Assembly: GCA_021325135.1 (NCBI GenBank) | Contig: JAJPHT010000034.1 | Span: forward strand, 1-64,000 | Origin: Pseudomonadota bacterium | Lineage (GTDB): Archaea > Thermoplasmatota > SW-10-69-26 > JACQPN01 > JAJPHT01 | Reading direction: 5' to 3' | DNA: 64,000 nt | Part shown: in pieces, positions 60,452-62,096 of the stretch | Numbering within the stretch: the stretch's first letter is position 1 | How the letters are laid out: each line of letters begins with the position of its first letter | Notes under the pieces: model-generated | What the model was told of the DNA's origin: nothing | What the model saw: the letters and a program-made list of their open reading frames with translations, nothing else | Databases searched by the model: none | Made by a program: the position numbers and the translations under genes

Positions 60452-61123
60452 ATGGGTGAACGGTTCTACAAGGCGTCGCAGGTGACCGTCGGCCCCCTGT
60501 TGCGGGGGCTCTGGCGCGTCCACGCCACGGGGCTCCACCACGTCCCGGCGGCGGGCCCCGCGATCCTCGCGTCGAACCACCTCTCCTACACGGACCACTA
60601 CTTCCTGCCCGCGGTCGTCCCGCGGCAGATCTTCTTCATCAGCAAGGCGCAGCACTTCGACGTGCCCGTGCAGCGCTGGCTCTTCGAGCAGTGGGGCGTC
60701 ATCCCGCTCAAGCGCGGCGAAGGCGACAACGAGGCGTTCACCCGCTCGCTGGAGATCCTGGGCGAGGGCAAGCTCTTCGGCATCTACCCCGAGGGGACGC
60801 GCAGCACGGACGGCAAGCTCCACAAGGGGCGCACGGGTGTGGCGCGCCTCGCGCTGAAGGCCCGCGTGCCCGTCGTCCCCGTGGGCATGATCGGCACCGA
60901 CAAGGTGCTCCCCAAGGGGAAGAACGTGCCCAAGCTCCACAAGGTGACCATCCACATCGGGGCGCCCATGCGCTTCGACGAGTTCTACGGCCACGAGGAC
61001 GACCGCAAGGTCACGCGGGAGATCACCGACCGCATCATGGTGGCCATCCGCGACCTCTCGGGGCAGGAGTACGTCCCGGAATACACGCGCAACCCCGAGT
61101 ACCACACCAAGACGGAGGGCTGA
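60452..61123 (+). CDS. plsC: 1-acyl-sn-glycerol-3-phosphate acyltransferase family (PlsC)
   Basis: ASNHLSYTD (NHx4D), IYPEGTRS.DG, GVARLA...VPVVPV. Confidence 0.9.
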   Translation: MGERFYKASQVTVGPLLRGLWRVHATGLHHVPAAGPAILASNHLSYTDHYFLPAVVPRQIFFISKAQHFDVPVQRWLFEQWGVIPLKRGEGDNEAFTRSLEILGEGKLFGIYPEGTRSTDGKLHKGRTGVARLALKARVPVVPVGMIGTDKVLPKGKNVPKLHKVTIHIGAPMRFDEFYGHEDDRKVTREITDRIMVAIRDLSGQEYVPEYTRNPEYHTKTEG

Positions 61124-61124
61124 C

Positions 61125-62096
61125 GTGGCCGCCGTGCTGGGCGCCGGCTCGTGGGGCACGACCCTTGCGATCCTGCTGGCCAGCAAGGGCGAGCGCGTGA
61201 CGCTCTGGGCGCGCGACGAGGCGCTGGTGGAGGCGATGCGCAAGGAGCGCCGCAACCCGCACTACGTCAGCAACGTCCCCTTCCCCCCTTCCCTGCGCGC
61301 CACGCACGACCTGGCCGAGGCGCTCTCGGGCGAGACGCGCGTCGTCCACGCCGTCCCCAGCAAGGCGACGCGGGAGTTCGCCCGCGCGTACGCCAGGCAC
61401 CTCGCGCCCGACGCCCGCATCGTGAGCGCCACCAAGGGGCTGGAGCAGAAGTCGCACAAGCGCATGAGCGAGGTCATCCACGAGGAGACGCGCCGCCCGG
61501 TGGCGTGCATCACCGGCCCCAACCACGCCGAGGAGGTGAGCGTCGGCCAGCCCACCGCGGCCGTGCTGGCGTACCCCGACATCGACGTGGCCAAGCAGTG
61601 GGCGGAGCTGTTCAACACCTCCTTCTTCAAGGCGTACCCGCGGCGCGACCTCGTGGGCGCGGAGGTCTGCGGCGCGTACAAGAACGTCGTCGCGCTGGCG
61701 GGCGGCATGGCCGACGGCCTGGGCTGGGGCGACAACTGCGCCGCGTGCCTCATCACGCTGGGCATCGACGAGATGATCGAGCTGGCGCGCCTCTTCGGCG
61801 CCGACGAGCGCACCGTCTACGGCCTCGCGGGTGTGGGCGACCTCGTCGCCACCGTGACCAGCGACCACTCGCGCAACCGCTTCTACGGGCGCGAGCTCGG
61901 CAAGGGGCTCTCCGCGGAGCAGATCCGCGAGAAGATGCACGGCCAGGTCGCCGAAGGCGTCTTCGCGACCAAGGCGTTCTACGACTACGCCGTGGACGAA
62001 GATCTGGAACTGCCCCTGACGCGCGTCGTGCATCGGATTCTCTACGAGGGCGCGACGGTGAAGCAGGGCGTGGCCGAGCTGCTGGCGCGCGTCTGA
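61125..62096 (+). CDS. gpsA: NAD(P)H-dependent glycerol-3-phosphate dehydrogenase
   Basis: GAGSWGT, AVPS, ATKGLE, GPNHAEEV, GA.KNV.A...G, GDN, GLAG.GDL..T....SRN, AEG. Confidence 0.95.
   Translation: MAAVLGAGSWGTTLAILLASKGERVTLWARDEALVEAMRKERRNPHYVSNVPFPPSLRATHDLAEALSGETRVVHAVPSKATREFARAYARHLAPDARIVSATKGLEQKSHKRMSEVIHEETRRPVACITGPNHAEEVSVGQPTAAVLAYPDIDVAKQWAELFNTSFFKAYPRRDLVGAEVCGAYKNVVALAGGMADGLGWGDNCAACLITLGIDEMIELARLFGADERTVYGLAGVGDLVATVTSDHSRNRFYGRELGKGLSAEQIREKMHGQVAEGVFATKAFYDYAVDEDLELPLTRVVHRILYEGATVKQGVAELLARV

Follow-up and report, generated by a model that had tools for sequence, protein, structure and literature searches.

Does any archaeon make bacterial-type ester lipids? The question is open in the debate on the 'lipid divide' and on the origin of the eukaryotic membrane. 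It is raised here by a gene pair at positions 60452-62096 of a 64-kb stretch of DNA (the window), which forms the beginning of a 69.9-kb contig (C8) in the metagenome-assembled genome (MAG; G000, 3.77 Mb in 51 contigs) of an archaeon. The pair encodes a PlsC-family acyltransferase and GpsA, the bacterial-type dehydrogenase for sn-glycerol-3-phosphate (G3P), and the same contig carries EgsA, the archaeal dehydrogenase for sn-glycerol-1-phosphate (G1P). What we established is the identity of the genes, their motifs and conservation, and their synteny and co-occurrence; 41 relatives served as the closer comparison set and 301 genomes of the phylum as the distribution sample. Taken together, the data suggest, with a probability of roughly 60%, that acyl-G3P lipids are synthesized de novo alongside ether lipids, and that the pair is a conserved operon at the entry point of this synthesis.

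The acyltransferase-gpsA pair

The first gene (60452..61123, + strand) encodes a PlsC-superfamily (LPLAT) acyltransferase of 223 aa. The protein matched the Pfam profile PF01553 (Acyltransferase) with 110 bits, against a gathering cut-off of 23. We found all four LPLAT motifs, H43LSYTD48 (HX4D), G82VIPLKR88 (GxIxLxR), E114GTR117 and P140VVPVG (PxxPxG), and they are unchanged in an alignment of 9 orthologues. The enzyme is predicted to be soluble or peripheral, with no transmembrane helix and a 19-residue hydropathy maximum of 1.24. Its sole match among solved structures was T. maritima PlsC (5KYM, E 3.9e-14). The archaeal enzyme is shorter at its N-terminus: it lacks roughly 40 residues of the 5KYM chain, a part that we take to bear the membrane-anchoring helices of T. 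maritima PlsC.

The second gene, gpsA (61125..62096, + strand, GTG start), encodes an NAD(P)H-dependent sn-glycerol-3-phosphate dehydrogenase of bacterial type (323 aa). It scored 374.7 bits on NF000942 (cut-off 257) over residues 3-322, and the PF01210 and PF07479 halves both matched. The GpsA family has a Rossmann GxGxxG motif and, at the substrate site, conserved K-N and S-R-N motifs; the protein has GAGSWG at 6, GPNHAEE, KN at 186 and SRN at 249, with GAGSWG, KN and SRN in alignment with 3K96. An exact-sequence look-up of the protein in public assemblies gave no record. The closest solved chains were 3K96 (235 bits) and 1Z82 (215 bits), both presumably bacterial enzymes, while 1TXG, which we take to be the Archaeoglobus enzyme, reached only 105 bits.

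At the junction, the acyltransferase stop codon TGA (61121-61123) is followed by a single base and then by the gpsA GTG at 61125 on the same strand. The initial annotation, made from the sequence of the window, had described an intact PlsC-family gene and gpsA 1 nt apart in host-like codon usage. The coordinates proved exact, with open reading frames and profile matches in agreement, and the GC content at third codon positions (GC3) of the pair is 0.92 and 0.97, compared with 0.92-0.99 in most window genes. A candidate TATA-like A/T-rich box (GATAAGCT; 60415..60422, + strand) lies 30-37 nt 5' of the acyltransferase ATG within DNA of 72% GC, and a box at matching distance was found in three other genomes (G001, G002 and G007). 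From its position and recurrence, this box may be the promoter of the pair. Directly upstream of the acyltransferase gene, and divergent from it, is a gene for a DUF2203 protein (59945-60355, - strand).

Host and contig continuity

The MAG has an estimated completeness of 94.4% and contamination of 5.6%, and GC content is 68-74% in all 51 contigs. No 16S rRNA gene was found in it, so the phylum placement rests on kinship codes and the EgsA/GpsA pattern. Archaeal markers in the genome are GGGPS, a CarS equivalog and UPF0179, the last within the window. The A-type ATP synthase subunit A matched TIGR01043 with 943 bits on a truncated gene, and ribosomal protein P0 carries the archaeal/eukaryotic insertion domain.

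Relatives provided a test of continuity. GpsA is present in 8/8 other family members, its identity drops with kinship (88, 84, 77, 67-69, 58, 53 and 48 percent), and the acyltransferase gene lies directly 5' of gpsA in relatives wherever contig extent permits. The sister species (G002) has egsA, the pair, the desaturase gene and glpD together on a single contig (C34). This conserved synteny excludes the chimeric contig or bacterial host that the initial annotation had named among the possible refutations of its reading. In another genome of the same family (G005), the acyltransferase and gpsA matches are on separate short contigs (C56 and C341), and no acyltransferase gene is found in the 1.5 kb 5' of gpsA; a rearrangement or a fragmented assembly is possible there.

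Ether-lipid genes and ester-lipid partners in the genome

EgsA is encoded at 1819..2880 (- strand), 57.6 kb from the pair. The gene had been called intact from the window, and its product scored 497.6 bits on the G1P dehydrogenase equivalog NF002022 (cut-off 413); EgsA is present in 37/41 relatives. The genome search for GGGPS, DGGGPS and CarS that had been recommended found all three. GGGPS scored 269.7 bits on NF003198 (cut-off 247), and its gene is overlapped by a DGGGPS-like UbiA gene. The DGGGPS assignment was made from this overlap and from the best family, NF009521 (213 vs 296, below cut-off). CarS scored 179 bits on NF003114 (cut-off 148). All four members of the archaeal ether-lipid set (EgsA, GGGPS, DGGGPS and CarS) are present in the genome.

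On the ester side, the initial annotation had seen no first-acylation enzyme in the window, and this holds for the whole genome: at 94% completeness we found neither PlsY nor PlsX, and no PF01553 match of PlsB size. Five small PF01553 acyltransferase paralogues are encoded on contigs C8, C26, C50, C38 and C49, and the relatives have 3-6 LPLAT paralogues per genome.

Domain profile matches revealed a carboxyltransferase-FabI-megasynthase cluster on contig C23 (L035:5787-17388, - strand). The megasynthase is a 3050-aa protein of the acyl carrier protein (ACP) type, with a ketosynthase (KS, 278 bits), an acyltransferase domain (AT, 155 bits), a second KS-like region, two ACPs matched as PP-binding domains, a ketoreductase, a dehydratase and a fused phosphopantetheinyl transferase of ACPS type. 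A FabI-type enoyl reductase (240 bits) and an acyl-CoA carboxyltransferase (636 bits) precede it, and the archaeal ribosomal genes for L1/P0/P1 lie 2.5 kb from the cluster. Phosphopantetheine carrier domains occur in this genome only inside the megasynthase. Archaea have been said to lack complete type-I or type-II synthases, with ACP almost always absent (2024 preprint, 10.1101/2024.07.05.601840). The genome also has a fatty-acid desaturase gene, whose pattern across the 41 relatives is the same as that of the pair and the megasynthase.

Furthermore, we found a glycerol kinase, GlpK (640 vs 590 on TIGR01311), and a GlpD-type dehydrogenase. GlpD is kept in family f3, which is without GpsA, the acyltransferase and the megasynthase. 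Since GlpK and GlpD form a separate route that is kept where GpsA is absent, GpsA does not appear to be there for glycerol catabolism. The purely catabolic GpsA that the initial annotation had considered is thus unlikely.

A CdsA cassette on contig C38

The recommended search for CdsA was also positive. A 3.5-kb cassette on contig C38 (L023:~6900-10378) consists of four abutting genes, encoding a methyltransferase, a CDP-alcohol (CDP-OH) transferase, CdsA and an acyltransferase, the fifth of the PF01553 paralogues. CdsA is of bacterial type and matched PF01148 over its full length with 202 bits, and reached only 104 vs 385 on NF008635. The CDP-alcohol transferase is nearest to archaetidyl-/phosphatidyl-inositol-phosphate (AIP/PIP) synthases, below cut-off. 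For the full bacterial phosphatidate-to-phospholipid set, the genome has candidates in the five small LPLATs, CdsA and the CDP-OH transferase, and PlsX and PlsY were not found.

In the sister species G002, which lacks the cassette, nothing separates the flanking citrate-synthase gene from its neighbour across the site. We therefore attribute the 3.5-kb block to an insertion or deletion within archaeal synteny and not to contamination. The same cassette is found in a genome of a different, distant family (G016) with 66% nucleotide identity. Bacterial-type CdsA was detected in 3/41 relatives and 8/301 phylum genomes, and every carrier has GpsA and the acyltransferase. A role of CdsA as lineage-wide partner of the pair was rejected on these counts.

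Distribution and co-occurrence in the phylum

We found GpsA in 92 of the 301 genomes, this acyltransferase type in 125, the megasynthase in 106 and EgsA in 227. The initial annotation had described such genes as rare and patchy in archaea; in this phylum they are not rare (GpsA 92/301, acyltransferase type 125/301). GpsA and the acyltransferase occur together in 86 genomes and are both missing from 170, with GpsA alone in 6 and the acyltransferase alone in 39. The association of the acyltransferase with the megasynthase is similarly tight: both are found in 104 genomes, neither in 174, and a single one in 21 and 2.

All four genes (GpsA, acyltransferase, megasynthase and EgsA) are combined in about 25 genomes of six families (f1, f5, f6, f30, f33 and f47). 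The plsC-gpsA operon order, with gaps < 100 nt, is seen only in families f1, f4, f5 and f6 of the class, and the two genes lie apart in f28, f11 and f30. Two families have the module without EgsA, namely f28 (EgsA 0/42) and f11 (EgsA 0/21). The same megasynthase and acyltransferase type are carried by 42/42 genomes of f28, and f11 carries both too. We take f28 and f11 to be relatives of the Poseidoniales.

Origin of the acyltransferase

In a comparison with 185,579 species genomes, the best 80 matches of the acyltransferase all fell in Actinomycetota, with 42-50% identity. In a tree with only actinobacterial outgroups, the archaeal sequences group in a single clade (SH-aLRT 95). Actinobacterial monophyly, on which the placement of this clade inside or beside the Actinomycetota depends, had a support of 14, and we claim no donor because all outgroups of the tree are actinobacterial. 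These observations argue for a single origin, within the class, of an actinobacterial-like acyltransferase subtype. Transfer of the pair as a unit from Actinomycetota was rejected, as gpsA lies within 4 kb in 0/80 of the closest actinobacterial genes.

Proposed function of the pair

The initial annotation had suggested a capacity for both glycerol phosphate backbones. Our findings support this, since the genome holds genes of the G1P ether and the G3P ester routes. From the gene content we infer the substrates, the direction of GpsA, the acyl donor and the entry of the products into the membrane, as follows. The megasynthase, acting as a type-I synthase with trans-acting FabI and acyl-CoA carboxyltransferase, would make fatty acyl chains, on which the desaturase would act. 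GpsA would convert dihydroxyacetone phosphate and NAD(P)H to sn-glycerol-3-phosphate, which the PlsC-family enzyme would then esterify with fatty acyl chains. One or more of the five LPLAT paralogues would load G3P and 1- or 2-acyl-G3P. As PlsY, PlsX and PlsB were not found, a PlsC-type enzyme would also have to perform the first acylation. The acyltransferase of the pair would start the ester branch and the other paralogues would finish it, with the CdsA-linked paralogue serving phosphatidate activation where the cassette exists. In this genome, the C38 cassette could take phosphatidate on to a CDP-diacylglycerol-derived phospholipid. With the CdsA-headgroup cassette added to the rest of the module, there is a named candidate gene for each step but the first acylation.

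A possible answer to the first step comes from mycobacteria. PlsM (Rv2182c), a PlsC-type enzyme of 247 aa with no transmembrane segment, uses acyl-CoA to acylate both G3P and lyso-phosphatidate. Its organism has neither PlsX nor PlsY, and a type-I synthase feeds its glycerolipid synthesis (PMC10593935). The archaeal enzyme shares general features with PlsM: it is small (223 vs 247 aa), has its HX4D motif at H43-D48 (H41-D46 in PlsM), has no transmembrane segment and has actinobacterial relatives. However, Y66 of PlsM is a His in the archaeal enzyme, and the donor of PlsM is the acyl-CoA of the type-I fatty-acid synthase. The neighbours of the actinobacterial relatives (ROK kinase, alpha/beta hydrolase, sensor kinase) were uninformative on orthology with PlsM. 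The archaeal gene is, in addition, translationally adjacent to that of the G3P-making enzyme. By analogy, the comparison suggests that the acyltransferase of the pair may be a PlsM-like enzyme that acylates G3P itself.

Several observations weigh against de novo synthesis of acyl-G3P lipids. The acyltransferase falls under the cut-off of the NCBIfam model AGP_acyltrn (TIGR00530; 80.1 vs 102.95 bits), and we therefore label it 'PlsC family' and not as a proven 1-acyl-G3P acyltransferase. The co-occurrence counts are inflated by common ancestry; the carriers fall in about a dozen families, which means few independent events. The product of the megasynthase could be a polyketide-like lipid and not an ordinary fatty acid. 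CdsA is present in 0/8 other family members, and the step past phosphatidate is unexplained in most carriers of the pair. From the literature, archaeal genes of this kind were judged unlikely to act in membrane synthesis (Coleman et al., PMC6431249), lipid surveys of waters dominated by Marine Group II (MGII) gave no assignable lipids (PMC6962369), and CarS was reported to discriminate against phosphatidate (PMC9385802).

Part of this evidence would fit a minor or specialized acyl lipid (storage acylglycerols, a lipid anchor or an inositol lipid) or lysolipid re-acylation, in place of bulk membrane phospholipid. Most carriers are without CdsA, the acyltransferase is peripheral with no transmembrane helix, each genome has 3-6 paralogues, the full ether pathway is retained, and an alpha/beta hydrolase and beta-oxidation genes are found in the window. 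However, an operon-borne GpsA, a 3050-aa synthase, a desaturase and an ACCase subunit would be a large investment for a trace lipid, and the same module stands without any EgsA in the presumed Poseidoniales families, so that we regard this explanation as possible but rather unlikely. It is improbable that the acceptor of the acyltransferase is instead an archaeal intermediate (geranylgeranylglyceryl phosphate or a different lyso-ether lipid, for instance), which would give chimeric ether/ester lipids with GpsA as an alternative source of backbone or headgroup. Villanueva et al. 2017 (quoted in PMC6962369) suggested such lipids for MGII, the contig with GGGPS and DGGGPS (C49) also encodes an LPLAT paralogue, and CarS reportedly accepts ester bonds or a G3P backbone if the chains are geranylgeranyl (PMC9385802). 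Nevertheless, the nearest named relatives of the enzyme are ordinary actinobacterial glycerolipid acyltransferases (42-50% identity), its tight co-occurrence is with the fatty-acid synthase, and no substitute backbone is needed where EgsA is present.

A GpsA that serves glycerol or redox metabolism, next to an acyltransferase with an unrelated acceptor and by historical adjacency, would agree with the reported link of archaeal G3P dehydrogenases to glycerol metabolism (PMC6431249) and with the presence of GlpK. This is very improbable, as catabolism is already served by the GlpD-type dehydrogenase, which is also found in relatives that have no GpsA. Moreover, the distribution of GpsA follows that of the acyltransferase, megasynthase and desaturase and not that of GlpD, and the adjacency is class-wide. 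Finally, bacterial DNA could have been joined to an archaeal contig by assembly or binning, given that the contamination of the MAG is estimated at 5.6%, that no 16S gene was found in it, and that the closest named relatives of the acyltransferase are Actinomycetota. We consider such an artefact scarcely credible in view of the uniform GC content over 51 contigs, the presence of the pair in every family member with identity that tracks kinship, the archaeal flanks, and the placement of egsA and the pair on one contig in both this genome and G002.

Other features of the window

A 12-kb island at 38539-50317 differs in composition from its surroundings (GC 58-65% vs 72%, GC3 0.62-0.78). It encodes a C5 cytosine methylase, a DUF4062-TPR protein, a 1399-aa helicase-like protein and two proteins without family match, and is probably an acquired defence or restriction island. 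It may explain part of the distance from egsA to the pair, which exceeds that in G002.

Genes of acyl-CoA metabolism on the same contig encode a family III CoA transferase (14225-15346, + strand), a FadB-like fused 3-hydroxyacyl-CoA dehydrogenase/enoyl-CoA hydratase (23538-25544, - strand) and a methylmalonyl-CoA mutase (27227-28906, + strand). At 62194-63110 we found three tandem genes for small secreted paralogues (114, 82 and 76 aa), each with a signal peptide and no Pfam match. The paralogues have a common Cys-rich core, VGTCT...GPHCP.LFC.GTSWSY...C, and their genes are followed by those for an ABC transporter ATPase and permease.

Comparison with known systems and significance

Bacterial-type G3P and acyl genes are known in MGII/III, Asgard and DPANN archaea (PMC6431249, PMC6962369, PMC7852524, PMC9385802). 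The gene set described here resembles that of Marine Group II/III (Ca. Poseidoniales), which kinship codes place in the same phylum and for which GpsA, a PlsC homologue and a fatty-acid route beside GGGPS, DGGGPS and CarS have been described (Villanueva et al. 2017, cited in PMC6962369 and PMC7852524). The Poseidoniales are without a G1P dehydrogenase (0/270 MAGs; Rinke et al. 2018, PMC6461757), and the pattern of f28 and f11 agrees with this. In contrast, the present lineage keeps EgsA and has plsC and gpsA in one operon, and this genome adds the CdsA cassette. The acyltransferase belongs to the same superfamily as T. maritima PlsC (5KYM) and has the same catalytic motifs, but the PlsX and PlsY of the bacterial PlsX/PlsY/PlsC pathway were not found in the archaeal genome. 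Parts of both lipid pathways are likewise combined in Ca. Cloacimonadota/FCB bacteria with archaeal ether-lipid genes (PMC7852524) and in Lokiarchaeia with PlsC/PlsY (PMC9385802). The former have no clear G1P dehydrogenase and Asgard archaea are reported to be without GpsA (PMC6431249), whereas here GpsA and EgsA are encoded on one contig. We found no paper on such genes in terrestrial members of the phylum, in a literature search with thin coverage of subscription journals. What is new here is the retained G1P dehydrogenase with the whole ether pathway, the class-wide operon, the putative PlsM-like subtype of the acyltransferase, and the rare CdsA-headgroup cassette.

The known candidates for archaeal ester lipids are hard to interpret, as the Poseidoniales lack the archaeal backbone enzyme and the Asgard archaea are reported to lack GpsA. 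This uncultured soil lineage has both backbone dehydrogenases on one contig, together with its own ACP-type fatty-acid synthase and a desaturase. We tentatively raise a further possibility, which we hold to be unlikely, that this archaeon and its few CdsA-bearing relatives have a heterochiral membrane. Such a membrane would combine G1P isoprenoid ethers with G3P diacyl (inositol-type) phospholipids made from their own desaturated fatty acids, with the PlsM-like enzyme and GpsA starting the ester branch. If true, this mixed membrane would be an archaeal counterpart, in mirror image, to the E. coli engineered to have mixed membranes, and the organism would offer a living model of a lipid transition.

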